64,000 bases of DNA from an uncultured Alphaproteobacteria bacterium (GTDB lineage Bacteria; Pseudomonadota; Alphaproteobacteria; Rs-D84), in NCBI GenBank assembly GCA_944393245.1, contig CALXZM010000004.1:383-64382 (forward strand). The letters run 5' to 3'. The position numbers and the translations under genes were made by a program. Shown here in pieces: positions 1 to 50,545 of the stretch. Under the pieces are notes generated by a model that worked only from the letters and a program-made list of their open reading frames with translations, did not search any database and was not told the origin of the DNA. Position 1 is the first letter of the stretch, and each line of letters opens with the position of its first letter.

Positions 1-2156
1 CTGCAACTACAGGGGGATCAGCGTTACCTGCAACAACGGGTGGCGGTTCAAATGTACCAGCGCCCACAGGTGGCGGATCTGGTGGTAATACTGGTGGCGG
101 TGGTGGTAAAGTAACAGGCAAGGGCGTGGGAAGCACCGTTGGGAAAGCACTGGGGGTCTTGGGCGGTGCCCTGATGGTTGTTGATGGTGCTGCAACTGTG
201 TCTGAATCTGTTGCAGGTACAGATAAAGCCACTTGGAAAGATGTCGGGCAGGGTGCCCTGGGTGGTGCAGAGGCCGCGGGTGGTGTCCTCATGTTTTCAA
301 GAGGAGGAAGTTGGCAGGTAGTGCTTGGCACATTGGCCGCAGGTGCAGTAATCGGTGCGGCTGGTGCGGGTGCAGAAATGTTTTCTGAAACCGATTGTGA
401 AATGGACCCTGTGTTAGGAATGTATGCGTGTTGCAATATTTCAAAGTTAAGTAATATTGATGCATATCGGGCTGAAATAGGCGACAGAATGTTTACCGAT
501 ACTTTCCCGTATGTACGTTACTGTGTACAGGGGAAAAAAGAATTCAAAGAAGAACAACCGTGGTTAAAGGGGCGTTTTTTGGATGACCACTGGTCTGCAA
601 ATACCGAGGTTGGTTTATGTCCAGGATATGATATGCCAGTAAATCCAGATATGAATATATCATTAATTGCTGCTGCTGTTGAAGGGGTTGGACACTGTTG
701 GGCGTGGGAATGTGCCGAACCGGGGCGTGTGCGCAGTGGTGGAACATGTATCGGCAGTGATGTTGCGGATGCCAGTGAAATGGGGCCGTTTTTGCCAGAA
801 AACTTTGAAGCGAATTCAAATCAAGATAGTGGCGGAAATACTGCTGATAATGTAATCGGCACAAATTGTAATGTCGCTGATTTACCACAATATGCAACGG
901 CTGGTACCTATATTAATAATGGCGTCGGTGTTGTATGCGCCGCAACGGCATGTCAAAGTGGAACTTATTTGGTTGTAAATGCATCCGGTGTATCACAGGG
1001 CTGGTGTGTTGCATCAACATATTGTAATAATAAACCAAATACGCATTTGAATATTATTGATGAAACAAAAACCGATTTGCAGTGCGTTTCAAATGATACT
1101 GGTAATGCACCGGTTGTTGCAAATGCGCCACAATCGGGTGACGAAAATCAACCTGATGTGTCGCCAAGTAATGATGAACCGGCGGCGGTAAATACTGATA
1201 CGCGCAACGAATGTGAACGTGGTGTCACAGGTTACGTTATGTTCGAAGGTGTTTGTATGCCAATCGCACAAATGCAACAAATTCAATCGCAACGTGCCGA
1301 ACAACAGGCCGCACAGCAAGCAGCACAAGAATTACAAAACTTGCAGTCGCGAATTGACAGATATGCAGAAACAATTATGGATATAGAGGACGCGCATGCC
1401 GATGATAAAGTGTCTGCATGGAAAAATGCAGAGGGTAAATTTAATACGTCGCGTTTGTTGTCTGATTCCATTGCTGGAATTGCGCTGGGGACTGTTGGCG
1501 GGCTGGTTGTGAACAAGGTTGTAAAAGATAAACATGTTGAAACCGGATTCGAAGAGATTGGCTGTGCCATAGATGATGAAAGGGTTGCTGATTTTGATGA
1601 TGTGTTCGTAATCAATGGCGCGGTTAATAAAAATGGGTGTGTTGGTAATAACACTGGGTACGGTAATGTATATGTGTGGGCGTCGCGTAACAGTGACGGC
1701 AGTGATTATACACGTATGGTCGAAGACGTTTCCAATCCGGCAAATAATGCATGTTGGGTGCGTGTTGATATAGAATCTGATAACCCGAATATTCGTGTGT
1801 CTGATGTGCCGTCACGTTGGTTTATTGTCGGACAACAAATTACATGTGGTAATTGGGCCGACAGAAACACTTTGCGGCAACGTGCGTTGGATGCACGAAA
1901 ATCTGGACGCACGTGGGCAACTGTTGGTGGGGCCGTCGGTGGCGCGGGCGTCGGCGTTGGAATAATGGAATTGTTTGGTAATCGCCTGATAGGGGGCAAG
2001 GTTATGGGACAAAAGGCACTGGACGAAGTGGAATTGCTGTATTCGCAAATGTCTGAATCAGAACGGCGCGAATATGCAAATGCTGTTGAAAAACTAGATG
2101 AATTGTGCAGTGAATTGCATGCCAGGGGTGGTTTCCATTCTGCGTGTGGCGATTGA
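1..2156 (+). CDS. Family A secreted protein, 5'-partial (gene runs off the window start). Gly-rich repeats, a Gly/Ala-rich hydrophobic glycine-zipper-like segment, then a Cys-rich module and a long C-terminal region
   Basis: The reading frame is open from position 3 (ATTGGSALPATTGGS...) up to the first Met at 126, so the N-terminus lies outside the window. The motif FSETDCEMDPVLGMYACCN...GDRMF...CVQGKK and a CWAWEC..SGGTC motif match the 402-aa protein at 44723-45931 (FSETDCLYDPVTGAFTCCN...GDYMF...CLQGKK; CWNWGC..SGNTC). There is an intrinsic terminator just downstream. Confidence 0.6.
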   Translation, partial: ATTGGSALPATTGGGSNVPAPTGGGSGGNTGGGGGKVTGKGVGSTVGKALGVLGGALMVVDGAATVSESVAGTDKATWKDVGQGALGGAEAAGGVLMFSRGGSWQVVLGTLAAGAVIGAAGAGAEMFSETDCEMDPVLGMYACCNISKLSNIDAYRAEIGDRMFTDTFPYVRYCVQGKKEFKEEQPWLKGRFLDDHWSANTEVGLCPGYDMPVNPDMNISLIAAAVEGVGHCWAWECAEPGRVRSGGTCIGSDVADASEMGPFLPENFEANSNQDSGGNTADNVIGTNCNVADLPQYATAGTYINNGVGVVCAATACQSGTYLVVNASGVSQGWCVASTYCNNKPNTHLNIIDETKTDLQCVSNDTGNAPVVANAPQSGDENQPDVSPSNDEPAAVNTDTRNECERGVTGYVMFEGVCMPIAQMQQIQSQRAEQQAAQQAAQELQNLQSRIDRYAETIMDIEDAHADDKVSAWKNAEGKFNTSRLLSDSIAGIALGTVGGLVVNKVVKDKHVETGFEEIGCAIDDERVADFDDVFVINGAVNKNGCVGNNTGYGNVYVWASRNSDGSDYTRMVEDVSNPANNACWVRVDIESDNPNIRVSDVPSRWFIVGQQITCGNWADRNTLRQRALDARKSGRTWATVGGAVGGAGVGVGIMELFGNRLIGGKVMGQKALDEVELLYSQMSESERREYANAVEKLDELCSELHARGGFHSACGD

Positions 2157-2586: not shown

Positions 2587-3432
2587 TTATTCTTCGTCCA
2601 GCGCAATGCCGACCAATTTACGTACAATTTCCGCACTTTGCGAATCGCCATTTGGGGCGTATTCCACGAATTCAAAACTGTGTGCGTCGGGGGCAAATGC
2701 GCGTACAAAATATTCGGCAGCATCGGTACTGATTCCGTTTGGTTCTGGTACCAGAACGTCGCGGAATATTTGCGGATCAATCGCATCAAAATCAAATGAT
2801 ACAACGTATGGACGGGTGCCGATTTTGCGCTTTATTTCATCCACCGCGTGCGTATATGCGTCCGTGGTTGATAATTCCGATGCAGAACGTGTGTAAATAT
2901 TTTTGCGACGTACAAAATTTATTTCCGATGGTTCATATGAACGGGCGCCCAGATAAAATACATTTTCCGGGCGCAGGGCGGGGCGACGCAGTTGCAAACC
3001 CAACCAACGTTCATCGCCATCACCCAACAGGGCGCGAACATTGGTGCCATGGGGGGCACCGGATGCCTCTGCCTGGGATGATTCTGGGGTATGAATATCC
3101 AAATGCGCGTCAATGTAAACCAGGCATAAATCTTCGTCCTGAATACGGTTGGCCAATGCGCTGAAATGACCAAAATTGACGGAATGGTCCCCACCAATCA
3201 TTACATGGCGTTCAAACGGTGTGGCGGCCACAATTTTCTTTTGTATCTGAAAGCAATCACCAAACCTGTCGGTGGCGCATAATTCTGCATTATATGGATC
3301 GGCAATAATGGTTGTCCAATCTGCATCAGGATACATTGTCTTTACCGCCGCCGGTGCCAGTGCCGGCCCGCCATTTGTCACAATGTGTGCCGTTGCGCTG
3401 CGACCGTATTCAATGCCCATTATTGTTTTCAT
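2587..3432 (-). CDS. Arginase/agmatinase-family ureohydrolase
   Basis: Motifs GGDHSVNFG, YIDAHLDIHT and VSFDFDAIDP are the binuclear-Mn ureohydrolase signature. Probable start is MKTIMGIEYG. The gene abuts the stop of the upstream secreted-protein gene. Confidence 0.75.
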   Translation of the reverse strand: MKTIMGIEYGRSATAHIVTNGGPALAPAAVKTMYPDADWTTIIADPYNAELCATDRFGDCFQIQKKIVAATPFERHVMIGGDHSVNFGHFSALANRIQDEDLCLVYIDAHLDIHTPESSQAEASGAPHGTNVRALLGDGDERWLGLQLRRPALRPENVFYLGARSYEPSEINFVRRKNIYTRSASELSTTDAYTHAVDEIKRKIGTRPYVVSFDFDAIDPQIFRDVLVPEPNGISTDAAEYFVRAFAPDAHSFEFVEYAPNGDSQSAEIVRKLVGIALDEE

Positions 3433-4535
3433 TTGTATGCCTCCACAACGCTTTCTGCGACGTTTTGTAATTGTTGTAATGAATTTTCGTATGCGGCACA
3501 ATCGCGCGCAATATCAGAACGATATGCGTCCCGCATATTTGTTTGCATATATGCACAGCCAGTTAAATGTTGTACGCAATATTGATGCCCGATGGCAAAT
3601 GCCTGTTGGCCACGGACCTGGCTTTCTGTGCTGGACCAATCAATATTTAATGCGTCATCCAGATTTTTCCACGAATTTTCACCAGTGTATTTACCAATGG
3701 TTTCCATCCAATATTCGTTCATTTCCTCTTCGGTCCAATGGCTTTTGTTTTGCAGGGTTAATATTTCCTTTATCAAACGGTCAATTTCTGGTTTGTATTT
3801 TGCGTCAATTTGGGCCAAGTGCGCACTGCAATAACAACGATTGTATTCTGTATTTTCGCGTTGACAATATGAATTCATACAATCAACATAATCCGCCATG
3901 CAACGCGCCGAAGATACCGCTTCACCCGTAGATGTGTATACCGCAGTGGATGATTGACGTGCCGTTGATACATTGCCGTCTGCACGTGATGTACGCATAA
4001 TACCGGTTTGCATTGCCGTTGTGCCAGTGGATGTGCCGGCACGTGCAATAACGCGTCGGGTGCCAGATGCGCTTTGTGCGGATAATGATGATGTTGCGCG
4101 ACGTGCGGTTGTGCGGCCACCATTTGTCGCGGCACGGGCCGTGGACGTGCCGGTTGATGTCGCGCGTCGTTGTGATACGCCACGTGTTGCCGAACGTGCG
4201 TTTTGGGCCGCTGTATTTGATGTTGGGGTCGTGCGTGCCGATGATGTGATTGCCGCACGGGCGTTGGTGTTTGTGGTTGTGGCGCGCCGCGGAACAACGG
4301 TTCGCGTGGATGAATTTGTTGTGTTTGTACGTGTCAGTACATTTATTTGTGCGTTGGCCTGGGATGGACTGACCCCCGGATTCAGGTTTGTACGCATGGT
4401 GTTGTTCATATAAGGATACAGATTGTTGTACGCATTTGCACTGACGTAATCAGACGGGCGTGTTGTGGCCAATGCCGCGCCAGATGTGATTGCCAGTGTC
4501 GTACAGATTACAAAAAGTATAAATTTCCTTGCCAT
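3429..4535 (-). CDS. Family B secreted protein: signal peptide, basic T/S/A/R-rich low-complexity region, C-terminal Cys-motif domain
   Basis: MARKFILFVICTTLAITSGAALA is a Sec signal. About 170 aa are low-complexity (TTARRATSS, ARTTPTSNTA...). The module CMADYVDCMNSYCQRENTEYNRCYCS aligns to CKSAYFTCMDQFCQLKNDDYRRCSCS in the 913-aa protein at 36851-39592. Confidence 0.6.
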   Translation of the reverse strand: MARKFILFVICTTLAITSGAALATTRPSDYVSANAYNNLYPYMNNTMRTNLNPGVSPSQANAQINVLTRTNTTNSSTRTVVPRRATTTNTNARAAITSSARTTPTSNTAAQNARSATRGVSQRRATSTGTSTARAATNGGRTTARRATSSLSAQSASGTRRVIARAGTSTGTTAMQTGIMRTSRADGNVSTARQSSTAVYTSTGEAVSSARCMADYVDCMNSYCQRENTEYNRCYCSAHLAQIDAKYKPEIDRLIKEILTLQNKSHWTEEEMNEYWMETIGKYTGENSWKNLDDALNIDWSSTESQVRGQQAFAIGHQYCVQHLTGCAYMQTNMRDAYRSDIARDCAAYENSLQQLQNVAESVVEAYK

Positions 4536-36850: not shown

Positions 36851-39592
36851 TTATCTGATGGCATCGGGCAAATATTCTAATTCTTCGCCATTTTCTGATA
36901 CACAAATGCCATCTTTTTCACCGCCATTTAATGGGCAAACCTGGTTGGCGGAACTGGGGGTCATTATGCACCAATCTGATGCGGCTGGGACGTTGGTGGC
37001 ACTGACATCCATCATTTCGTGCAGTGTTATGCTGCAACTGGCATCGTTTGCGTGTTTCGTTGTCCCAGATGTTTGATTTTTTACCGTTACTGGCAGACCA
37101 GCGATACATTTCGGGCTTTGGCCCCATTTACTGCGGCGTCCGCCATTTTCCCAGCACAGGCATGCCCCCCATGATTGGGTGTCCACATTCAAATCGTAAT
37201 CACGTGGGCACATGTTTTCATTTGCACCAATGGCATATATTTTAACTAAATTTGGGTATATTGATGTACCACCATATTCCAATGAGTTTTCAAAATCGGC
37301 AGAACACAAAGAATCTTCGACATAAACATCTTTGATAAATTGTAGTTCTATAAACCTGCCCTGTAAATTCATGCATTGTGTTGTCAAAGAGTCAACGATT
37401 TGATTATATATTTCGGTTGCAACACCCGTTGGTCGTGGTGTGTGGTGGGCCAACAAACGTTGTGGACCCGCCGCCACGGATGTATCATATGGTGTTACAC
37501 CGTCTGTTGGATTTGCGTCCAGTAAACCGTATTTTCTGTGCTTGCCAGGTGCGCCATTTTTATTGTATTCGCCATCGTAATCAAAATAGAATACACTTTC
37601 AGTATTGTATTTACCCTTGGACGCGTTTATAACGTCAAATCCACCAAATACCTTTTCCAACATTTCCGGTGCACTGCATGATTCAATGTCTTTTAATTGC
37701 TGGGCGCATTTTGATACGGGCTTGTCTGTTATTTGTTTGCCGTTTTCGTCATATTCATACAATGTAAACCATTCCAGTGCTTCGCCGGTGCGGAATAAAC
37801 CGCTGTACGGATAATAGAAGTTTTCATAATTACTGCCACCAAAACTGTCAAAGCATTGTTTTGCAACTGCACGACATGCGGTCAAAGTATCCGTTTCTTC
37901 GCGATTGTTGATATAGTCCGTAACGATGTTTTGGCCGTCCGTTTGTTCATAGAACATCATGTTACATGAATTGATATAGTCGCGACATATTTCGGTGGTT
38001 AGTGTGATTTTGTTTGGTTGTAAAACCGTGGTATCGTCCCCAGTTAATTCAGCCATTGCCGCAGTCAGTGCCGTATCACCGTTCATATAGCATGCTGATA
38101 CAAAGTCAAAGCAACCCTGCTTGATTTCGGCAACTTTGGATTGTTGGGCGTAATATATGTCCAACATTGCTTTGTCTAAGTATTCCGCCCAAACGTCATC
38201 CGCGATTTCTGTGCATTTATCCAGTGCGGGTTCCGCAAATTTTTTCACCCTGTTTTCAAAATTATTTACAAATGCACGATTGGCGGTAACCTTGGATAAC
38301 TTTTGATTGGCGGCATCAATACCATCAGCAAATCGTAACAGATTTCCCAATTCATAGAAGTTTTCCACCCCGGCAATCGGTGCACCCGTCGATACATCAA
38401 TAAATTCGCCATTGTCCAGGCATTTATGGTAATTGGCACCGCATACCTCTTCACTTAAAATGGCCTGTTCCACATTGGCCAGACATGTGGCCATGTCGGA
38501 TGAATTGTGATTTTGTCTGTTTTCTACGCGTGCCAAATCCAACATAGCACTGCTTTCGCGGACCGCGGATTTCATCTGTTTTTGTTGATTTTCGATTGCA
38601 GATTCAACGGCGTTACAATCCTGTTCTATGGCCATCAGGTATGCCGTGATTGCGCGCTGTAACTGGGCGTCTGTGCAATCAGCACGGACCGCCGCGCGAC
38701 ATTGTGGGTATACGGCGTTATATAAATTTTGGCCGTTGTATGATGCGATTATTTGCCCCGCGTCGGCGGTGCCAAATGCGTTTACAGTATCAAATGACAG
38801 GGTTATACTGTTTAATCCTGAATACTTGCCACCAACAGTTGCATCGTCGCCACGAATGGAATTCATAATTGCCCGTAATAATTGTTTTGATGCAGATGTA
38901 TCGGCGGTTAGTGCATTTTCACCCTCGGTCGCGGTTTTCATGGCGGCTGCCTGTTCCGCGGTCATGCCGACAACGTCCAGATTTTCTGTAAATACCGTTA
39001 ATTGGTCGGTGGCATCCTGCATAACATCACGAATTTCCGCCAGGTCAAACACGCGATTGCTGCACGAACAACGGCGATAATCGTCATTTTTTAATTGGCA
39101 AAATTGATCCATGCATGTGAAATATGCACTTTTACATTGTTCGTATTCGGCCCCAGTGCGTGTGCCAGACACTATGTCGGATACCCCATCAATGGCCGCG
39201 CGTGAAACAACCGGTGTGGCACTGCGTGCAGATTGCACCGTTGTTGTGGCCGCCCGGGTTGTTGCGTCACGTGATATAACGCCAGTTGAATCGCCGCGTA
39301 CAGTTGCAGATGTATTTTGTGTTTGGCGTGGGGTGCGCGCCGTGCGGGCGGTTGTTGTGTCTGGACGGGTTGGTGCTGATACCGTGGTGCCAGTGCGTGA
39401 AACAACTGGGGCGGCGGTACGTGTTGTTACCGCACGGGCGGCAACGGCCTTGGTCGATGCAGTGCGTGATGTGGCGGATTGTGTTGCCGATGATGGGGTA
39501 CCACGATTGGTTACGTTTTCATCACGAACGGCGGCGTCGGCCGTGCCCAAGCAGATTGCAAAAATCCCAATAAAATGCAGAATTTTTTTCAT
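36851..39592 (-). CDS. Family B large secreted Cys-rich protein (913 aa). Signal peptide, about 140 aa of T/S/A/R-rich low complexity, then a large Cys-containing domain.
   Basis: MKKILHFIGIFAICLGTADA signal; TARTARTPRQTQNTSATVRGDSTGVISRDATTRAATTT...; EYEQCKSAYFTCMDQFCQLKNDDYRRCSCS is paralogous to the protein at 3429-4535. Confidence 0.6.
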   Translation of the reverse strand: MKKILHFIGIFAICLGTADAAVRDENVTNRGTPSSATQSATSRTASTKAVAARAVTTRTAAPVVSRTGTTVSAPTRPDTTTARTARTPRQTQNTSATVRGDSTGVISRDATTRAATTTVQSARSATPVVSRAAIDGVSDIVSGTRTGAEYEQCKSAYFTCMDQFCQLKNDDYRRCSCSNRVFDLAEIRDVMQDATDQLTVFTENLDVVGMTAEQAAAMKTATEGENALTADTSASKQLLRAIMNSIRGDDATVGGKYSGLNSITLSFDTVNAFGTADAGQIIASYNGQNLYNAVYPQCRAAVRADCTDAQLQRAITAYLMAIEQDCNAVESAIENQQKQMKSAVRESSAMLDLARVENRQNHNSSDMATCLANVEQAILSEEVCGANYHKCLDNGEFIDVSTGAPIAGVENFYELGNLLRFADGIDAANQKLSKVTANRAFVNNFENRVKKFAEPALDKCTEIADDVWAEYLDKAMLDIYYAQQSKVAEIKQGCFDFVSACYMNGDTALTAAMAELTGDDTTVLQPNKITLTTEICRDYINSCNMMFYEQTDGQNIVTDYINNREETDTLTACRAVAKQCFDSFGGSNYENFYYPYSGLFRTGEALEWFTLYEYDENGKQITDKPVSKCAQQLKDIESCSAPEMLEKVFGGFDVINASKGKYNTESVFYFDYDGEYNKNGAPGKHRKYGLLDANPTDGVTPYDTSVAAGPQRLLAHHTPRPTGVATEIYNQIVDSLTTQCMNLQGRFIELQFIKDVYVEDSLCSADFENSLEYGGTSIYPNLVKIYAIGANENMCPRDYDLNVDTQSWGACLCWENGGRRSKWGQSPKCIAGLPVTVKNQTSGTTKHANDASCSITLHEMMDVSATNVPAASDWCIMTPSSANQVCPLNGGEKDGICVSENGEELEYLPDAIR

Positions 39593-42529: not shown

Positions 42530-42590
42530 GAATATTAAAAAATCCGCCAGTATCGGCGGATTTTTTATTGGTATGTTTATACATGTTTGT

Positions 42591-42929
42591 TTATCGCAAA
42601 CCCTTTGCCCGGCAACAGGCCGATGCTGCACTGCGCCAATCGGAATATTTCTTGTTCGGGGTGCGTAAATCCTGCCACGGTTGCCAACCACTGCAATTTT
42701 GGTTGTCGCCACTGCCGTTGCATTTTACATATCGACGTAATGTACATGTTTGGTTTGAAACCTTGCCCGTGTCGGTTGTGCATTTTACCACAACCGTTTG
42801 ATTGCGGGCATCGTTACGGCCCAATTCCTTGGATGATAACAGCTGATACGCATCCGCCATACCAGCGGACGCAATCAATACGCATAATGCACAGAATAAC
42901 TTTTTCATATAATGCGCCCCCTTTGTCAT
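42591..42929 (-). CDS. Small secreted Cys-rich hypothetical protein
   Basis: MKKLFCALCVLIASAGMADA signal; 10 Cys in 112 aa including a C-terminal CC dipeptide. Confidence 0.45.
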   Translation of the reverse strand: MTKGAHYMKKLFCALCVLIASAGMADAYQLLSSKELGRNDARNQTVVVKCTTDTGKVSNQTCTLRRYVKCNGSGDNQNCSGWQPWQDLRTPNKKYSDWRSAASACCRAKGLR

Positions 42930-42968
42930 ATTATTATAATCAGGTATGTATAAAATTACAATCGGTAT

Positions 42969-44717
42969 TTATTCGGCGTGCTGGGTGTCGCGCGTTGTCC
43001 ACGGTTCGTCGTTCATCACCAAATAATATAATTCTGCGCTGTTCGTTCCAGGGTTGCGTATAATCGGACGCACAACATAAATATCAACGTTACAGGCGCG
43101 ATTGTTTTCGTCCGTTTGAATACTATCCAGGTTGAAATGGAATTTGTTGGCAAAATCCATTGCCTGTAAAAACGCGGCGTCATCATCAGCGGCGGTATAC
43201 GCATCGCCCGCCCACATCAGCCACATGCCGTGATTTATAACGTTTTCTTGGCCCTGTAAATCGTCTGCGGATAATAATGTTAATGGTTTGAATTCTATTC
43301 CACTGGTGAAATCACCGGTACTGGTTTCTGTCCAATCATACATTCCGCCAATGAAATTTAATGCGCCGTATATAAATCCACCCGTTCTTTCCAGGCGTGC
43401 CAATGCACCCACGTTTGCCAGTGTTGATTGAAACAACCAATCACGTACACGGCCTGATAATGTGCTGCTGCGGGCGATTTTTGCAGCGGCGCGAATTTGT
43501 TTGCCGCCACTGTTGGCCGCACGTATTGCACGCCATGCGCGGGCAATAATGTTGCCACGTTGGGCCGGACGCAGACTGCGTAATGCGCGACGGTATTGAT
43601 TTAGTGAAGAAAATGTTTGGCTGGCCTGGCGATATCGGCGAACATTATCGTCGGTTGTTTCCAATGTACGTATTGCATTGGCGTAATTTTCAACCTCGGC
43701 CGCTTTACGCGCATATCCGGCCGCATCAGTTGCGCGATCAATTGCCCTTAATTCTGATGTGGCACGTGCGTATTGTTGGGTCAGACGAATGTAATCGCGC
43801 ACAGAATCTGTTTGGCGCAGCGCACGCATTGTTGATGTTAGTCCGTGCAGTGCACGTGATGCACGTGCGGCCTTGGTTGCGCCCAGAACAGCAGTCCCCC
43901 CACCCATCGTCGCAACCGTTATAATCACATCCAATCCAATTTCCAGATATGAAATCCATTGTAAATTGGCATCGCCCGCCACATAGTAATCATTTGTGTC
44001 ATCTTCCAGATTTACTGTTTCGCGCATTGCGCGGTTTATCATGGTGTTATCATTGGTCAGTGCTGATTTGCCGGTGCACATATTGCCACGTGGAAACAAT
44101 GTATCAATGTTATCATTTATATATTGCATTGATATAGTGTTGTTTTTATCGGGGCCAACAAATGCGTCCAATGTGCCAGATTCCACAACCATAATGGCAT
44201 ACCATGCAGGATCGGTGTTCGTCCAAATGGCATTGTCGTTTGGGTCGCCAACACGTGGATTTGGATCGGTGGACGGTAAATCGCGTTTATCCCCCAGGGT
44301 TATACGCTGTTTCAGAATTTTTGGTTGTGTTTCATAATTTACCGTTATTGTGCGGCCACCTGGGAAAGTATATGTAATTGGTAAAAATTTGATTGTTTCA
44401 TCATCCGCCAAATTTTCAAATTCGGGGCATGCCAATACAGCGCGCAATACATCAGGATTCTGAAAAGTTTGGTATATCCATTGGCGAATTGTTGTTTCAT
44501 CATCTGTTTCAGAAACAGATGATTGGGTTTCATACAGTGCGTTTGCAAATATGGCCGTTGCACATTTTGTGTCATCTGGACTGGTTTTCAATAGTTCAGA
44601 TGTTGGGATAAAATCAGGTGTGTTTGGCAAATCATTTGGTGGGGGCACTAAATCCGCACAAAACGCCACACGCGTGGTGCACAGTGTGAATAATAAAGAT
44701 ACAGCAATTTTATGCAT
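42969..44717 (-). CDS. Large secreted hypothetical protein (about 580 aa) in the prepilin-peptidase operon
   Basis: Probable start MHKIAVSLLFTLCTTRVAFCA (Sec signal). It follows the stop of the Family A gene by 5 nt. No recognised domain. Confidence 0.55.
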   Translation of the reverse strand: MHKIAVSLLFTLCTTRVAFCADLVPPPNDLPNTPDFIPTSELLKTSPDDTKCATAIFANALYETQSSVSETDDETTIRQWIYQTFQNPDVLRAVLACPEFENLADDETIKFLPITYTFPGGRTITVNYETQPKILKQRITLGDKRDLPSTDPNPRVGDPNDNAIWTNTDPAWYAIMVVESGTLDAFVGPDKNNTISMQYINDNIDTLFPRGNMCTGKSALTNDNTMINRAMRETVNLEDDTNDYYVAGDANLQWISYLEIGLDVIITVATMGGGTAVLGATKAARASRALHGLTSTMRALRQTDSVRDYIRLTQQYARATSELRAIDRATDAAGYARKAAEVENYANAIRTLETTDDNVRRYRQASQTFSSLNQYRRALRSLRPAQRGNIIARAWRAIRAANSGGKQIRAAAKIARSSTLSGRVRDWLFQSTLANVGALARLERTGGFIYGALNFIGGMYDWTETSTGDFTSGIEFKPLTLLSADDLQGQENVINHGMWLMWAGDAYTAADDDAAFLQAMDFANKFHFNLDSIQTDENNRACNVDIYVVRPIIRNPGTNSAELYYLVMNDEPWTTRDTQHAE

Positions 44718-44722
44718 GTTTT

Positions 44723-45931
44723 TTAGTTGCCCAACATATAACCACACCTGTTAACAAGGTTTTGACGCAGGTTTTGTAAACGATTAATCAGTTCATCGTA
44801 TTGATTTGTAGTTGGATTTTCAGGCGTTGTGTACGGGTTTACCGGTTGATTTGTTGATGCGACGACACAGGTGTTACCACTGCGTGTATAACCAGATATA
44901 CAACCCCAATTCCAACAATAATTGGTGGTATCAGGTATGTATTCAATATATGCATCTATGCCCTTGGCGGGTTCGCCAGATTCTGTACAATATCGTGCGA
45001 CACATTCAGGTTGCCAAAAATCGTCTTTCCATAATCCGTTCCACCACCCCGCGGCGGTGTCTGACCAAGTGGATTCGTCTTTCTTTTTCCCCTGTAAACA
45101 TTGACGGACACCCGGTGCGGCGATAACATTAGTGCCGTTTTGTTCCACGCCACAGAACATATAATCACCAATATTTGCCTGGCGTTCGCCTTTATTAAAT
45201 ACCGTATTACAACATGTGAAAGCACCAGTCACAGGATCGTATAAGCAATCTGTTTCTGAAAATACTTGTGAACCAGATATTAAACCGCCAATAATTGCAC
45301 CAGCGGCCGCCCCGATACCAGTGCCGATTACTGGGAATATACTGCCAACCGATGCACCCGCGATTGCACCACTGGCCGCACCACCAGCCACATTCCAACC
45401 GCTGTGTTCGCCCTGGCCGGCGGTTGATGCATATATACCGGCCGCGCCCCCGGCAATGCCCAATGCGGCCCCCACTTTTGCGCCGCGTGACATACTGGAC
45501 CAGTTTGTTCGGGGCCTAGGCGCGGTAGTTGACGGTGCCGACGTTGTTGGCCCAGACGGAGCTGGGGCAGGACCTGGTGTCGGTGTCGACGTTGTTGGTC
45601 CAGACGGAGCTGGGGCGGGACCTGGTGTCGGTGTTGACGTTGTTGGTCCAGACGGAGCTGGGGCAGGACCTGGTGTCGGTGTCGACGTTGTTGTCCCAGA
45701 TGGAGTTGGGGCAGGACCTGGTGTCGGTGCCGATGGTGTTGGTGCAGGTACGGGAACCGCATTTGGCATACCTGTAACGTTTATTAAACGTCCTGTATTT
45801 GCGTCACGCCAACGGTGATCAGAAATGCTCTGTACTGGGATTACGCCAGGGTCATTCCACATTAATGCGTTTGCACCAGAATTAACAAACATCAATGACA
45901 GTATGAAAAAAAATATAACTGTTTTACGCAT
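44723..45931 (-). CDS. Family A secreted protein: signal peptide, 16-aa Pro/Thr-rich tandem repeats, glycine-zipper segment, FSETDC...CCN / CWNWGC module
   Basis: MRKTVIFFFILSLMFVNSGANA; (TPTPGPAPAPSGPTTS)x about 4; GAALGIAGGAAGIYAS...IGTGIGAAAGAIIGGLISGSQVFSETDCLYDPVTGAFTCCN. Paralogous to 1-2156. Confidence 0.6.
   Translation of the reverse strand: MRKTVIFFFILSLMFVNSGANALMWNDPGVIPVQSISDHRWRDANTGRLINVTGMPNAVPVPAPTPSAPTPGPAPTPSGTTTSTPTPGPAPAPSGPTTSTPTPGPAPAPSGPTTSTPTPGPAPAPSGPTTSAPSTTAPRPRTNWSSMSRGAKVGAALGIAGGAAGIYASTAGQGEHSGWNVAGGAASGAIAGASVGSIFPVIGTGIGAAAGAIIGGLISGSQVFSETDCLYDPVTGAFTCCNTVFNKGERQANIGDYMFCGVEQNGTNVIAAPGVRQCLQGKKKDESTWSDTAAGWWNGLWKDDFWQPECVARYCTESGEPAKGIDAYIEYIPDTTNYCWNWGCISGYTRSGNTCVVASTNQPVNPYTTPENPTTNQYDELINRLQNLRQNLVNRCGYMLGN
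45520..45740. repeat. Four tandem 48-bp coding repeats (the Pro/Thr/Gly-rich unit) inside the Family A gene
   Basis: gacgttgttggtccagacggagctggggcaggacctggtgtcggtgtc repeated with single-base variants. Confidence 0.7.
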
Positions 45932-45935
45932 GTGC

Positions 45936-46832
45936 TTAATAAATCCCTTTTAGACTTTTTATACATTCATTAAATGGTGTGCCGGCATTTTTGCAGTTTT
46001 GCAATGTTGCTATATCCGCATTTAGCGTTGCCAGTTGCGCTGTTGCGTTATTGCAATAAGAATCGTAACGTGCACGGTATTTTTCTTCGCTTTCAATATT
46101 TAATGGTTCGTATGCGGATTTATCCTTGTACGGGGCGTAACCGGCCGCGTCATTTTGCATGCGTTCGGTAAAAGATAAATCAGCGGCCGTTGTTGGAAAT
46201 GCCGCGCGTGCCAATTGGGTGTCGCCCCCGCCGGTGTTGGCAGATTGCAGATTTTGTAATTCCTGTTGCCGTTCCATTATATCACCCATCCAGTCGGGTG
46301 TTTGTGGGGTATATGGGTTGGGAAATTCATAATCGGGTTGATTTAACTTTGTATTCGGGGTTGTCGCAGCCGGAAAAGATACCGTTTTGCCCGTGGGGGC
46401 CGCCACTGCGTTTTGTGAAACATATTTGCTGAATTCTGTGTCAATGTATCCCGCGCATGGCGTTACATAGTTATGGTTTGGTAAACTGGCCAATTGTACA
46501 GTCAACGTTGGACGTGCGTCATCAACGTCAATCCCGACACAGTTATTGCGCGATGCACAAAATGATGCCACCAATGCCCCAACAACAGCGGTACAATCCG
46601 ATGTGTCGACATCCGTGCCCTGGACATAAACGGGTACCGGCATACGTTGGTTATACGGCATGTCAGGATTCCAAAATGGGTTTGATGAATAATTTTGCAC
46701 GTTTTGTATTTGACCATATTGTGAAAATGGTGTGGTGTATGTCGGAAATGTTGTCGCGATTGCCGGCAATGTGGCAATGCTGAAAAGTGTGCCAATTATG
46801 GAAAATATATATAATTTCATTTCTCTGCCCAT
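45936..46832 (-). CDS. Secreted hypothetical protein (about 300 aa)
   Basis: Hydrophobic signal-like N-terminus MKLYIFSIIGTLFSIATLPAIA. AGGGA Shine-Dalgarno before Met6. Contains QQELQNLQS, a heptad also present in the 676-aa Family A protein. Confidence 0.5.
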   Translation of the reverse strand: MGREMKLYIFSIIGTLFSIATLPAIATTFPTYTTPFSQYGQIQNVQNYSSNPFWNPDMPYNQRMPVPVYVQGTDVDTSDCTAVVGALVASFCASRNNCVGIDVDDARPTLTVQLASLPNHNYVTPCAGYIDTEFSKYVSQNAVAAPTGKTVSFPAATTPNTKLNQPDYEFPNPYTPQTPDWMGDIMERQQELQNLQSANTGGGDTQLARAAFPTTAADLSFTERMQNDAAGYAPYKDKSAYEPLNIESEEKYRARYDSYCNNATAQLATLNADIATLQNCKNAGTPFNECIKSLKGIY

Positions 46833-46850
46833 TATTCCCTGTTTCATGTA

Positions 46851-47333
46851 TTATATCAAAAATGCCATTGTAATTAAAGACAAAATTCCACCAATGATAA
46901 AAAATGGCGCAAAAGGAATGTATTTTTGTTTCTGGCGCATGCCCCAAATTATTCCCGATATACATGCGATAACCAACGCCATGGCCAATCCTGTGGCACC
47001 CAACCATACGCCGCCCGTTGCAATTAATTTTATGTCGCCCATGCCAATTGGAATGTCTGGTTTTTTGTGTCGGGTCCCGATTTTTTCAAAAATGAAACCG
47101 ATTAATGTGGCCAATATATATCCAGATGTTGCCGCGATAACCGATTGACCAATTGTGACCGGCCACGGAAAAAATGTCGCCATTATCAGCCCGATTAACA
47201 ACAAGGGAAACAGGTATACATCTGGAATTATGCGGCGACGCCAATCGGCGACCGATATTTTCCATGCGCACCATGCCGCAATGGCCAATAAAATGCAGAA
47301 AAAAATGTTGTATATGTCAATCGCAATATTCAT
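46851..47333 (-). CDS. A24-family prepilin-type aspartic peptidase (TadV/CpaA-like, short form)
   Basis: Catalytic Asp motifs ADWRRRIIPD and IGMGDIKLIATGGVWLG; about 5 TM helices; 160 aa. Confidence 0.7.
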   Translation of the reverse strand: MNIAIDIYNIFFCILLAIAAWCAWKISVADWRRRIIPDVYLFPLLLIGLIMATFFPWPVTIGQSVIAATSGYILATLIGFIFEKIGTRHKKPDIPIGMGDIKLIATGGVWLGATGLAMALVIACISGIIWGMRQKQKYIPFAPFFIIGGILSLITMAFLI

Positions 47334-47404
47334 AATTCCCCCTTGCCTTTCGATTCGAAAATATGTTACAATTATGACGTTATATATAACAAGGATTTTT
47401 TAAT

Positions 47405-47959
47405 ATGAGTAAAGGTTGGGATAGCGCAACGCTGAAAAAGTTAAAAGCCCTGACTGGCAAGGGACTGTCCACGGCTGAAATCGGAAAACGTTTGGGGATG
47501 AGCAAAAACGCAGTCGTCGGAAAACTAAACCGTTTGGGTTGGAATTCCAAGGCCGGCGGTGTTGCCGGTGCTGATAAAGCCAAAAAGGCGGATGTTAAAA
47601 AGACAGCGACGAAAAACACGACTAAAAAAACCGTCGCGCCAAAGGCTGGGGCTAAAAAAACGTCTGGGCGTGCGGATTCTGTTAAAAAAACGGTTGTGGC
47701 CAAGGTTGCAAAAACCACGGACAAGGCCAGTTCACCAAAAAAATCACTGACCAAAAATTTGGCAATGCATCAGCGTATAATTCAGCATTCGTTGGAAATG
47801 GCAAATTTAAAACCTAATCAGTGTCGTTGGCCAATTGGGGATCCGGATTCTGAAAATTTTCATTTCTGTGGTGCCCAGGTGTTTGTTGGCAAACCGTATT
47901 GTTATGAACATTGCAAGCAGGCGTATCAGTTTACACCGCCAAAAAAGAAACAGGCTTGA
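47405..47959 (+). CDS. gcrA: Cell-cycle transcriptional regulator GcrA
   Basis: N-terminal WDSATLKKLKALTGKGLSTAEIGKRLGMSKNAVVGKLNRLGW. C-terminal QCRWPIGDPDSENFHFCGAQVFVGKPYCYEHC is the GcrA signature. Confidence 0.8.
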   Translation: MSKGWDSATLKKLKALTGKGLSTAEIGKRLGMSKNAVVGKLNRLGWNSKAGGVAGADKAKKADVKKTATKNTTKKTVAPKAGAKKTSGRADSVKKTVVAKVAKTTDKASSPKKSLTKNLAMHQRIIQHSLEMANLKPNQCRWPIGDPDSENFHFCGAQVFVGKPYCYEHCKQAYQFTPPKKKQA

Positions 47960-48004: not shown

Positions 48005-50545
48005 ATGGATAAATCGGTTTTAACATTCAGGGAATATAATATAGCAGGCAATGTATTGCGTGCTTATTATGATGCCGATGATAAATTGGTTTTTGTCCTG
48101 GACAGTACGTTGGACGACAGAAAACCGAATGCGCTGTTGGTAATAAATCCGGTTGGTGACAGAAAGTGGGATGATATTTTGGCCAATGATTATGGGGTTG
48201 ATTTAGAAACTGTTCGGCCGAAAAAAAATAACAAATATCAAAAACTGGATATAGAATATGCCGGGTTGGCGGAATATGATAATTTAATTAATGCGTATGA
48301 AACCGGTGGTGATTTGGCGGCTGCATTGGCTGAATTGGCCGGTTTCCGCGAAGAATCTGTACGCCGTGCCGCAACTGAACGTTTGGCGGTGGCAAATGAT
48401 AATGCTGAAAAAGCGCGCGAAACAATTATCAAAACACGCGAATCTATTTCTGAATTACAAACCAAGTTGCGCCAATTACGGGCAAAACTGGCCCAGCAAA
48501 AAAAGCAGGTCGGGCGCGAACCAACAAAAAAATCTGCGTCCAAGATTTTGCGCACTGATGCACAGGTTGATGCCACAAATGAAAAATTGCGTCGCGCAAA
48601 AAAACGTTTGAATAATGCACAGCGTCGTTTGATTGCTGCGGACCAGGATGCTGAAATCGCACGTGGAATTTTGGAACGAAAAAATACTGTGGCGGATGTG
48701 GAAATGAAACACGGTGTTGCGCGGCCACGTCCAAGTGCGGTGGAACCGATTGTTACAACCACTTATAATGTATCTTATGATGATGTGACAGATAATGACA
48801 ATGGTGATGATGATAATGGGCGTGATGATGAATTTCCTGATTCTGGAATTCATTTTTCCACACAAATAGATATGTCACCCAATAATAATATTGTGGCCGC
48901 AGCAGACGCCAACGACGATAACAATGTTGCACGCATGCCGGACACAGAATTTGACAGTGACGATAATTTGGCAGATGTACAAACACAAATCGCAGATGAA
49001 CCAAAGGCGGAAACAATGGCTGATGAACCAGTGAAAAACGAAGAAGAAGTAAAACCGTTGTTTGACAATGATCCAGAAATATTGGACGAAGAAATCGCGT
49101 TTAAGCCCATTAATTTTGGGGTTTCCAGTCCTGTGCCGGATCAGACAGCAGAATCACAACCCAGTGCAGATGTTTATGAAACGGTTGTTGATGAAAAACC
49201 ATTGGCATTTACGCCACCGGTTGATGATGATAAAATCGTTCGGGATTCACCAATAAATGTCAGACCCGTAACGGATGAATTTGGGGAAAATACGGGCAAT
49301 ACAAATTCAGGGCCGGTGTTGGACACTATCAAATCGGTTGAAATGCCCGTGGATAATAATGATTCAAATGTACAATTGGATTCTGAATTAATGTCTGGTG
49401 TTGCGCCGATTCGGCCAGACGTGGAATCTGAACCTGTGCCGGTGCGGCCGGAACCTGTGGCACGGCCAATGGTAAATGAAAACAATATGGGAACGCCTGC
49501 CCCGGCCCCGGTTGCGCCAGATGTGAATGCGGGTGCGCGTCCTGTGCCACCGGCTGCAACGTTGTCAAATGCGGCCGCTGTTGCGCGCCCAATGTCGCCG
49601 ATTACTGGAAATGCGGCACCGACAAATCCGGCACCGCGCAAACCCACGTGGATATACTATGTTATGCTGATTTTATTAATCGGTTTATCAATATTTACGT
49701 TGTGGCTGTATCAGAAAAATACAAATCAGAATGTGCCTGATTTGACGGCAACGGTACCAACTGTACAGGAATCAGAACAAACGTCGCCAGATGTGGATTC
49801 TGATATAGACAGTCCATTTATCGCAGAAATGGATACAAGCGTATCTGATGAAAAAACGCAGATAACGGTTGATGCGCCTGTTGCAGAACCGGTGGAACCA
49901 GTTACGGTTACAGAACCGGTTGTTGAACCAGAACCAGTGCCAGAACCAGAACCTGTTGAAACCGTGTCTGAACCAGTGGTGACGGAACCAGAACCAGTGG
50001 CGGATATAGAAATCACATCAATTGATATGGCACCGACTGAACCGGTTGCTGAACCGGAACCTGTCATAGAAACAGAAGAAGAAATATTGGCCAGCAAGCC
50101 CGCGTATAATGTTTCACAAAACGAAAATATGTTTGTTGCCAGTCCTGAATATGATACTGAAACACTGCGGCAAAACGCCATGCAGGCCGTTGATACGGTT
50201 GGGCCGTCTGTTGTAACATCCAATGATGTTGCAAATGCAAATGTTAATGTGCCAACAACGCCATCAACAAATGTAACGTCTGGGGTGTCAATGAATGCAG
50301 CCCCAGTCGTACTGCAAAATCAGCAGGCGCCAGTGGCCACGTCAAATACAGTCGAAGAATATGTGCCCCAGGCCGTAACGTCGGTTGTATGGGAAGATAC
50401 CGTTCAGAATTTGCCAACGTGTCCAGATGGAACCGCGCCTGATGTTAATGGGTGTTGTGCTGGTGAAGTTTATACCGATATGGGGGAAATGGGATTTAAT
50501 TGTTGTCCAGAGACCGGTGGTGATTGTTTCCCGCCGTTGTTATAA
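48005..50545 (+). CDS. Large acidic single-TM protein with Glu/Pro/Val-rich repeats and a Cys-rich C-terminus (hypothetical)
   Basis: 846 aa. N-terminal coiled coil (ETIIKTRESISELQTKLRQLRAKLAQQKKQ), TM at WIYYVMLILLIGLSIFTLWLY, EPVEPVTVTEPVVEPEPVPEPEPVETV repeats, C-terminal CPDGTAPDVNGCCAGEVYTDMGEMGFNCCPETGGDC. Confidence 0.5.
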   Translation: MDKSVLTFREYNIAGNVLRAYYDADDKLVFVLDSTLDDRKPNALLVINPVGDRKWDDILANDYGVDLETVRPKKNNKYQKLDIEYAGLAEYDNLINAYETGGDLAAALAELAGFREESVRRAATERLAVANDNAEKARETIIKTRESISELQTKLRQLRAKLAQQKKQVGREPTKKSASKILRTDAQVDATNEKLRRAKKRLNNAQRRLIAADQDAEIARGILERKNTVADVEMKHGVARPRPSAVEPIVTTTYNVSYDDVTDNDNGDDDNGRDDEFPDSGIHFSTQIDMSPNNNIVAAADANDDNNVARMPDTEFDSDDNLADVQTQIADEPKAETMADEPVKNEEEVKPLFDNDPEILDEEIAFKPINFGVSSPVPDQTAESQPSADVYETVVDEKPLAFTPPVDDDKIVRDSPINVRPVTDEFGENTGNTNSGPVLDTIKSVEMPVDNNDSNVQLDSELMSGVAPIRPDVESEPVPVRPEPVARPMVNENNMGTPAPAPVAPDVNAGARPVPPAATLSNAAAVARPMSPITGNAAPTNPAPRKPTWIYYVMLILLIGLSIFTLWLYQKNTNQNVPDLTATVPTVQESEQTSPDVDSDIDSPFIAEMDTSVSDEKTQITVDAPVAEPVEPVTVTEPVVEPEPVPEPEPVETVSEPVVTEPEPVADIEITSIDMAPTEPVAEPEPVIETEEEILASKPAYNVSQNENMFVASPEYDTETLRQNAMQAVDTVGPSVVTSNDVANANVNVPTTPSTNVTSGVSMNAAPVVLQNQQAPVATSNTVEEYVPQAVTSVVWEDTVQNLPTCPDGTAPDVNGCCAGEVYTDMGEMGFNCCPETGGDCFPPLL

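Follow-up and report, generated by a model that had tools for sequence, protein, structure and literature searches.

A TadV/CpaA-type A24 peptidase heads a conserved operon of orphan proteins with Sec-type signal peptides in the alphaproteobacterial order Rs-D84

An A24 peptidase is usually taken to signal a type IV filament system, and to our knowledge all characterised A24 enzymes (PilD, TadV, FlaK and PibD) act on class-III leaders, with no other target known. Two bacterial groups come closest to the enzyme described here: TadV/CpaA of type IVc (Tad) systems (MEROPS A24), which consists of the peptidase domain alone, and PilD/GspO/ComC, which carries an additional N-terminal Cys-rich/methyltransferase region. 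The archaeal enzymes PibD, FlaK and EppA offer a precedent for A24 processing of large non-pilin exported proteins, the sugar-binding proteins of Sulfolobus, but these substrates still bear class-III leaders, which the operon proteins analyzed below do not. The host of the operon is a Candidatus Enterousia-like alphaproteobacterium of the order Rs-D84, with genomes of less than 1 Mb (~0.9 Mb). Rs-D84 is an abundant, uncultured gut lineage whose dependence on partner cells is supposed.

The locus was analyzed within a window of 64 kb, the whole stretch of DNA under study. Five closely packed minus-strand ORFs encode, in order of transcription, the peptidase, p300, p400 (Family A), p590 and p110, and are followed by a hairpin terminator (Table 1). 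The gene order, strand and coordinates given in a first-pass annotation were all borne out, as were its intergenic gaps of 3, 4 and 5 nt, with small corrections needed at two starts. For p300, the start preceded by a ribosome-binding site (AGGGA) lies at 46832, which widens the gap to 18 nt, and gene callers picked the same start. Orthologues of p110 begin at MKK (42908), giving a protein of 105 aa and a gap of 60 nt after p590; this gap holds a promoter-like TTGTAA-17-TATAAT element at 42933-42961, a possible promoter of p110's own. A longer GTG ORF of p590, reaching up to 44747, probably does not represent the true start. Downstream of p110, the hairpin and its T-run likely mark the end of the operon.

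Table 1. Coordinates of the operon, its control region and its divergent neighbours
Feature	Position	Strand	Basis or remark
Hairpin + T-run, AAAAAATCCGCC-GATACT-GGCGGATTTTTT	42537-42566	-	read from sequence 3' of p110
p110, small 6-Cys exported protein	42591-42929	-	112 aa as annotated
p590, conserved orphan membrane protein	42969-44717	-	582 aa from ATG (MHKIAV)
p400 (Family A), variable-slot occupant, 402 aa	44723-45931	-	signal peptide and domain features
p300, Sec-exported orphan protein	45936-46847	-	300 aa
A24 (TadV/CpaA-type) aspartyl prepilin-peptidase homologue	46851-47333	-	PF01478 and Asp motifs
gcrA-peptidase intergenic control region	47334-47404	.	-35/-10-like elements, palindrome, RBS AAGGGGG
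gcrA, divergent neighbour	47405-47959	+	PF07750, E=1.6e-28
p846, coiled-coil single-TM protein with Cys-rich C-terminus	48005-50545	+	conserved beside gcrA

Judged by its sequence, the 160-aa product of the first gene is a true A24 member. It matches PF01478 from residue 18 onwards over profile positions 2-104 of 104 (57.8 bits, cut-off 26.5; E=1.7e-15), contains no further domain, and shows ~5 hydrophobic segments by hydropathy, the layout of a polytopic inner-membrane protein. D30 and D38 (DWRRRIIPD) and D100 (GMGD) are unchanged among 23 orthologues, and the R-x-x-P-D and G-x-G-D motifs are kept in 88/88, two of which have GFGD. Across the 88 species overall identity ranges from 54 to 75%, with the Asp motifs and much other sequence invariant. 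These motifs predict a catalytically competent peptidase of the TadV/CpaA type, which it resembles in size (~160 aa), in consisting of the peptidase domain (PF01478) alone, in its D-x-R-x-R-I-I-P-D and G-x-G-D motifs and in its ~5 hydrophobic segments. It differs from TadV/CpaA in lying outside any flp-tadV-rcp-tad locus, and its nearest annotated relatives, which are on plasmids, are merely 31-37% identical. With PilD/GspO/ComC it has the catalytic fold family and motifs in common, but the bifunctional architecture is absent, since the 160-aa protein has no N-terminal Cys-rich/methyltransferase region, and its vicinity is free of genes for type II secretion or a type IVa pilus. Against the NCBIfam FlaK model the peptidase reaches only 12 bits, where the cut-off is 330.

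That no pilin-like gene accompanies the peptidase, as the first-pass annotation had claimed, was confirmed both in the window and in the ±10-kb flanks of 88 genomes. A combined regular-expression and hydropathy search revealed no ORF with G-x4-E and a hydrophobic segment, either in the 64-kb window or across related loci totalling 1.44 Mb, and T2SSE-type Walker/Asp-box ATPase motifs were absent from 18,262 ORFs of the related loci. Genes for Flp, TadE/F, secretin, TadZ or TadABC were not found within ±10 kb of the peptidase in the 88 genomes, nor were filament genes (ATPase, platform protein, secretin, pilin) in the window, in a total of ~20 kb of extensions past its two ends, or in any of these flanks. 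The operon and its flanks thus do not have the composition of a Tad/Flp (type IVc) pilus locus. A candidate platform protein, p846, was discarded: its single weak T2SSF match (E 0.054) reflects coiled-coil noise, judging by ten orthologues. An Rfam search returned tRNAs only. With an intact peptidase and no pilin in the operon, the target must therefore lie elsewhere in the genome or be of a new kind.

Each of the four partner proteins starts with a hydrophobic segment followed by an AxA-type site (AIA/T, ANA/L, AFC/A and ADA/Y; the slash marks the cut), and in none of the leaders does a Gly separate the n- and h-regions. The earlier reading of these leaders as ordinary Sec signals holds for the orthologues too, which have the same n-h-c/AxA organization. 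A class-III signal peptide, with its basic leader, Gly/Ala, helix and Glu at +5, is found neither in p300, p400, p590 and p110 nor in their orthologues. The string MKQG/IMGRE at the longest p300 start is class-III-like but absent from orthologues. The four proteins would thus be exported via Sec and processed by signal peptidase I, and on that route they would not be N-terminal (class-III) substrates of the peptidase. An internal class-III-like candidate, at the second hydrophobic patch of p590 (RTGG/FIYGALNF...), was set aside, being 13 residues long with Asn/Lys, without Glu at +5 and not credible as a TM helix.

We searched the window proteins against Pfam and NCBIfam, 53-58 orthologues of each partner against Pfam, and the PDB by sequence and profile. 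None of the four partners gave a Pfam, NCBIfam, PDB sequence or fold match. A PF07996 (VirB5-like T4SS) match recurs weakly (15/53, best E 0.0086), and was treated as noise because it is located in a low-complexity Ala/Arg helical region. p300 has a conserved YGQIQNVQNYSSNPFWNP motif in its N-terminal part, a helical domain with four Cys residues and, at the C-terminus, a helical hairpin; its AF2 model is of low confidence (pLDDT 66), mostly helical, and like its sequence finds no Pfam, PDB or fold match. Besides its signal peptide, p590 has a predicted periplasmic N-domain and a single conserved TM helix, polar and Gly-rich (residues 260-280); a helical stretch rich in Arg and Ala and a conserved domain at the C-terminus complete the protein. 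Its model, also mostly helical and of low confidence (pLDDT 54), has no fold match, viral folds included, and just 135 clusters match p590 among 1.84 billion cluster representatives. p400 combines a signal peptide and P/T-rich repeats with a hydrophobic hairpin of the glycine-zipper type and a C-terminal domain rich in Cys, and has a paralogue at 126-2156 of the window. In other genomes its position is taken by at least five other exported families, p590 paralogues included, making this slot a hot spot for swapping in different exported proteins. Three of the proteins, p300, p590 and p110, represent new families specific to the order. In five separate 50%-identity clusters (P0450, P0455, P0456, P0461 and P0465), p300 and p590-type modules form a single fused protein.

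A conserved block, gcrA<- ->peptidase-p300-[variable slot]-p590-p110, recurs in ~85 species. Among eligible loci, 84/84 have p300 downstream of the peptidase gene (same strand, within 9 kb), 70/71 have p590 and 63/65 have p110, an arrangement that far exceeds chance. Adjacency is nevertheless weak evidence of function, because synteny in the clade is high in general, with the housekeeping genes gcrA, acpS, corA and adk collinear too. Strong purifying selection acts on p590 and p110, and p110 is the best-conserved member of the operon (median identity 69%). gcrA adjoins the operon in 83/83 loci, and p846, the second divergent neighbour, is likewise always linked to it. The 78-nt leader is almost invariant across the order and carries a GANTC site in 83/83 loci, where the background frequency is 2.56 per kb; in the window the site (47352-47356) is enclosed by an 11-bp palindrome, TTCGAATCGAA, at 47349-47359. 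The palindrome and the neighbouring gcrA suggest methylation- or GcrA-linked (cell-cycle) control of the operon.

The first-pass annotation had described an A24 peptidase in an operon with Sec proteins and no pilin nearby, and had proposed that the enzyme acts on unconventional substrates or that the genes form a new arrangement for secretion or processing. The description stands, extended by the order-wide linkage; the proposal is undemonstrated. The reading we favour, at about even odds, is that a genuine TadV/CpaA-type peptidase is co-expressed with a lineage-specific envelope module while its substrates are encoded elsewhere in the genome. The core five-gene operon appears specific to Rs-D84 (Candidatus Enterousia and relatives), and the whole unit would be transcribed from the ultra-conserved leader with its GANTC palindrome beside gcrA. 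The four partners may form an envelope or surface module, in which periplasmic p300 would work physically with single-pass membrane proteins of the p590 family, the rapidly exchanged slot protein would probably provide a variable surface-exposed part, and the conserved p590 and the small disulfide-rich p110 would complete the assembly. The peptidase would most likely trim short leaders off small class-III proteins encoded elsewhere in the ~0.9-Mb genome, and its co-expression with the module may reflect a shared envelope-assembly programme or simply inherited gene order. Several observations count against this reading: filament genes are lacking in the window, its extensions and the flanks of 88 genomes, a genomic survey of Rs-D84 mentions type IV pili for a different lineage only, and the roles proposed for the four partners find no backing in homology, their AF2 models being of low confidence.

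An alternative that we consider distinctly less probable, yet the strongest of the rivals, places the substrates within the operon: acting as a GxGD intramembrane-type protease, the peptidase would cut the Gly-rich TM/juxtamembrane region of p590-family or slot proteins, maturing them or releasing a domain. Its gene comes first in the operon in every genome, behind the conserved leader. One conserved TM helix recurs in p590, in its paralogues and in several of the slot families; it contains polar residues, has a Gly cluster at the cytoplasmic end (W..E/D..T..GGG..G-ATKAARAS) and is of a type that would be expected to dock with a polytopic protein. The lack of a classical substrate near the peptidase in 88 genomes points the same way, and the Rs-D84 survey, which reports no pili for the order and mentions type IV pilus genes for another lineage only, is suggestive, not decisive. 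Presenilin and signal peptide peptidase (A22) use the same membrane GxGD aspartyl chemistry and are the sole precedent for cutting single-pass proteins in the N-out/C-in orientation of p590, but they form a separate family and are likened to the peptidase by analogy alone. That orientation is the reverse of prepilins, the leader-only specificity of known A24 enzymes speaks against such a cut, the G/hydrophobic-x3-E motif is absent, and the second hydrophobic stretch of p590 has neither the length nor the apolar character needed for a membrane span; the argument is one from genomic context alone. Somewhat less likely again is the fuller version, in which an A24 enzyme diverted from pilins makes a presenilin-like cut in the Gly-rich TM/juxtamembrane segment of both the p590 family and Family A, so maturing or releasing parts of a variable surface apparatus. 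If cleaved in this way, that lineage-specific apparatus would be one used by reduced-genome, probably partner-dependent bacteria.

The remaining explanations fare far worse. In Caulobacter, cpaA, cpaB and cpaC encode proteins of ~170, ~300 and ~560 aa. The similar gene order and sizes here, in an alphaproteobacterium with gcrA, could be read as a degenerate Tad/Cpa locus (cpaA-cpaB-cpaC-cpaD) with p300 and p590 as diverged CpaB/RcpC and CpaC secretin, but we hold this to be very improbable. The Pfam models for Secretin, SAF and RcpC had no match at E<=1 among the 53-58 orthologues, the AF2 models show neither a beta-barrel nor a beta-clip, p590 carries an inner-membrane-type TM helix followed by a basic segment, and flp, tadZ and tadABC are not adjacent; predicted secondary structure and topology largely refute a CpaB/CpaC identity. 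Equally hard to credit is a non-catalytic peptidase homologue serving as a membrane scaffold in a purely structural association: the protein is small and has no known substrate nearby, but pseudo-enzymes generally drop catalytic residues, and here both Asp motifs are invariant in 88 species that diverge as described above. Least plausible of all is a mobile toxin, bacteriocin or phage-derived cassette that landed beside the peptidase by chance, for which the variable slot and weak, inconsistent Pfam matches to LPD14, P22 gp7 and VirB5-like T4SS families might be cited, against a chromosomal place fixed between gcrA and housekeeping genes in ~85 species, absent integrase/mobility genes, unremarkable GC content, no viral fold match and the purifying selection on p590 and p110.

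An intact A24 peptidase is thus retained in genomes of less than 1 Mb, always heading an operon of orphan exported proteins. Whichever proteins it cuts, the GANTC-containing conserved control region beside gcrA offers a handle on cell-cycle control in Candidatus Enterousia, and the operon families and the slot offer handles on its envelope biology. Non-pilin substrates, if true, would widen the substrate range of the A24 family and point to a new surface apparatus.

The peptidase, a homologue of A24 prepilin-type peptidases, heads a run of five minus-strand genes, and is followed by four exported partners, p300, p400 ("Family A"), p590 and p110. The gaps of 3, 4 and 5 nt claimed between operon genes in the first-pass annotation had the same values in our ORF listing. 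The true starts of p300 and p110 probably lie slightly later than listed: p300 has a start at 46832 with an AGGGA ribosome-binding site, also the choice of the gene callers, and the p110 start kept in orthologues is at 42908. At the end of the operon, a 6-bp GC-rich hairpin precedes a T-run (~42537-42566), immediately past which lies a convergent tRNA-Val. A consensus scan for internal terminators gave 11, compared with 8.0±3.0 in shuffled sequence, and thus no excess; the 60-nt spacer between p590 and p110 contains a promoter-like TTGTAA-17-TATAAT.

Genes of the operon and its neighbourhood in the window (ORF-listing coordinates for the operon)
Gene	Position	Strand	Remarks
peptidase	46851-47333	-	160 aa
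p300	45936-46847	-	
p400 ("Family A")	44723-45931	-	
p590	42969-44717	-	from ATG; longer GTG ORF up to 44747
p110	42591-42929	-	
p846	48005-50545	+	846 aa; always adjoins gcrA
p913	36851-39592	-	913-aa Cys-rich exported orphan protein

The peptidase matches PF01478 with 57.8 bits (cut-off 26.5) and has about five hydrophobic segments. D30 and D38 (DWRRRIIPD) and D100 (GMGD) are invariant among 23 aligned orthologues, and both Asp motifs are present in 88/88 recovered orthologues, two of which have a GFGD variant. Judged by these features, it is a genuine and intact A24 enzyme; that it is a pseudo-enzyme acting as a scaffold is unlikely. Having no methyltransferase region, it falls in the short TadV/CpaA class. 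Among plasmid records, the closest annotated relatives are "A24 family peptidase" genes, located in a type II secretion or plasmid setting and only 31-37% identical. We conclude that the peptidase adds a member to a known family, and that the operon it heads is of an unusual, non-pilus kind.

Homologue and locus searches placed the window among Candidatus Enterousia-like gut Alphaproteobacteria. Conservation was assessed in 88 loci from ~85 species with the window copy as reference, to which peptidase identity was 54-100%. Partners were counted in eligible loci if their genes shared the strand of the peptidase gene and lay within 9 kb on its downstream side; p300 was present in 84/84, p590 in 70/71 and p110 in 63/65. 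Divergent gcrA adjoins the peptidase gene in 83/83 loci. Median identities were 69% for p110, 66% for gcrA, 61% for the peptidase, 59% for p590 and 50% for p300. The genes stay grouped despite rearrangement (p300 after p590 in related loci L028 and L034, a local inversion in L038), and a mobile cassette is an unlikely description of them. The clade is generally syntenic, with S1, adk, corA and acpS collinear as well, so conserved adjacency is weaker evidence of function here than elsewhere. The peptidase-headed operon is real and conserved order-wide.

The ~78-nt spacer between gcrA and the peptidase gene (47334-47404) is almost invariant in ~85 species. It contains an 11-bp palindrome, TTCGA-N-TCGAA (47349-47359), with a GANTC inside, ~20 nt ahead of the ATG of the peptidase gene. 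This GANTC is found in 83/83 loci, where the background of 2.56 GANTC/kb would give ~0.2 per spacer. In Caulobacter, CcrM methylates GANTC, and promoters that depend on GcrA make use of this site. By analogy, the palindrome suggests a putative CcrM/GcrA-type or other operator site, and cell-cycle-linked control of the operon and/or gcrA. The TaqI target TCGA occurs twice within the palindrome, and one related genome has an insertion past the operon's downstream end that encodes a TaqI-like restriction enzyme and an N6/N4 methyltransferase (L003 16583-18201). On the other side of gcrA, p846 opens with a conserved coiled-coil region of 240 aa, continues through an acidic/Pro-rich linker and a single TM helix (546-571), and has a Cys-rich motif at its C-terminus; a weak match to T2SSF disappeared on orthologue check.

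The N-terminus of each of the four partners runs from a basic n-region through a hydrophobic core to a site of AxA type (AIA|T, ANA|L, AFC|A, ADA|Y), and their orthologues have the same type of N-terminus, bearing out the earlier description of ordinary signal peptides rather than class-III (prepilin) leaders. The string MKQG|IMGRE, present if p300 is read from its longest start, bears a superficial, unconserved likeness to a class-III site. The operon was also said to have no pilin-like gene; a six-frame scan of the whole window for G-x4-E with a hydrophobic helix after it gave zero matches, as did a relaxed [GAS]-x4-[EDQ] version. In 1.44 Mb of related loci the G-x4-E scan gave one match, rejected as a pilin on its resemblance to a membrane permease. 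The window, ~20 kb past its ends and the flanks of the 88 loci, together only about one-tenth of a genome, yielded no ATPase, platform protein or secretin of a type IV filament, and no pilin. A degenerate cpaA-B-C-D locus is an unlikely reading of the operon.

The partners matched nothing in Pfam, NCBIfam or PDB sequences, even when 53-58 orthologues were scanned one by one. AF2 models were poor (pLDDT 54 for p590, 66 for p300), and Foldseek searches of PDB and viral models gave no significant match. The partners are new orphan families. A p590 profile matched only 135 clusters among 1.84 billion representative proteins; by this measure the p590 family is lineage-restricted. Five mutually divergent proteins in the more distant tier of hits (P0450, P0455, P0456, P0461, P0465) fuse an N-terminal p300-like part (~250 residues, 60% identical, E=1e-101) to a C-terminal p590-like part (~400 residues, E=2e-27), and in L086 a p300/p590-type fusion lies directly between the peptidase and p590. 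Such fusion argues for a physical partnership between p300 and p590-type proteins.

The slot between p300 and p590 is always filled by one exported protein, drawn from at least five families: Family A, the type in this window (24 loci); p590 paralogues with a CTHGNHTAHDKD motif; and families of ~500 aa (Cys-rich), ~350 aa and ~260 aa (Cys-rich). The window encodes a second Family A member (126-2156, plus strand, 676 aa), which shares 36% identity with p400 across the glycine-zipper and Cys-rich region; the slot protein thus belongs to a multi-copy family. The slot p590 paralogues (L086 1381-3462; L088 10892-12406; P0455-P0466) share an invariant Cys/His/Asp cluster, C-T-H-G-N-H-T-A-H-D-K-D, in place of which p590 itself has CTGKSALTNDNT; p590 may have lost a metal or catalytic site here. 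Homologues of p913 come after p110 in most related loci, and p913 may be part of the same module; a weak paralogue of it lies at 3429-4535. Just past the left end of the window, a locus of the same contig lineage encodes a protein of >1,690 aa with no Pfam match (L093 8578-11263). GC skew across the window (1-64000) is 0.2-0.39 up to ~36 kb, then ~0.05, and slightly negative past ~54 kb; gene orientation changes at about the same place, which may mark the neighbourhood of a replication terminus or origin, or a strand-bias effect.

What does the peptidase act on? To our knowledge, all A24 enzymes characterised so far act on class-III leaders. The reading with the better prior, to which we give an even chance, is therefore one in which the substrates would be ordinary small class-III proteins with genes elsewhere in the genome, and the operon would be a lineage-specific envelope module co-expressed with the peptidase. 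That the targets of the peptidase are instead membrane proteins of the operon itself seems to us rather improbable. In favour of such targets, the peptidase invariably heads the operon, under a conserved leader, and no substrate is encoded nearby in 88 genomes. p590, its paralogues and the ~500-aa family also share a conserved hydrophobic helix with a Trp start and a Gly-rich end, with an acidic residue within it in p590 and its paralogues. In p590 the basic segment ATKAARASR follows this Trp/Gly-rich helix, which indicates a single-pass, N-out/C-in protein with an interaction-prone TM helix; this orientation, however, is opposite to that of prepilins, and no cleavage motif is recognisable. 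Also in favour of targets within the operon, no pili are reported for the order in the literature: a published survey assigns Enterousia to order Rs-D84, describes its genomes as mostly <1 Mb and without flagella, TCA cycle or respiration, proposes a partner-dependent lifestyle, and mentions type IV pilus genes for a different lineage only (PMC12306168). The significance of the peptidase-headed operon would be high if these genomes hold no class-III substrate.
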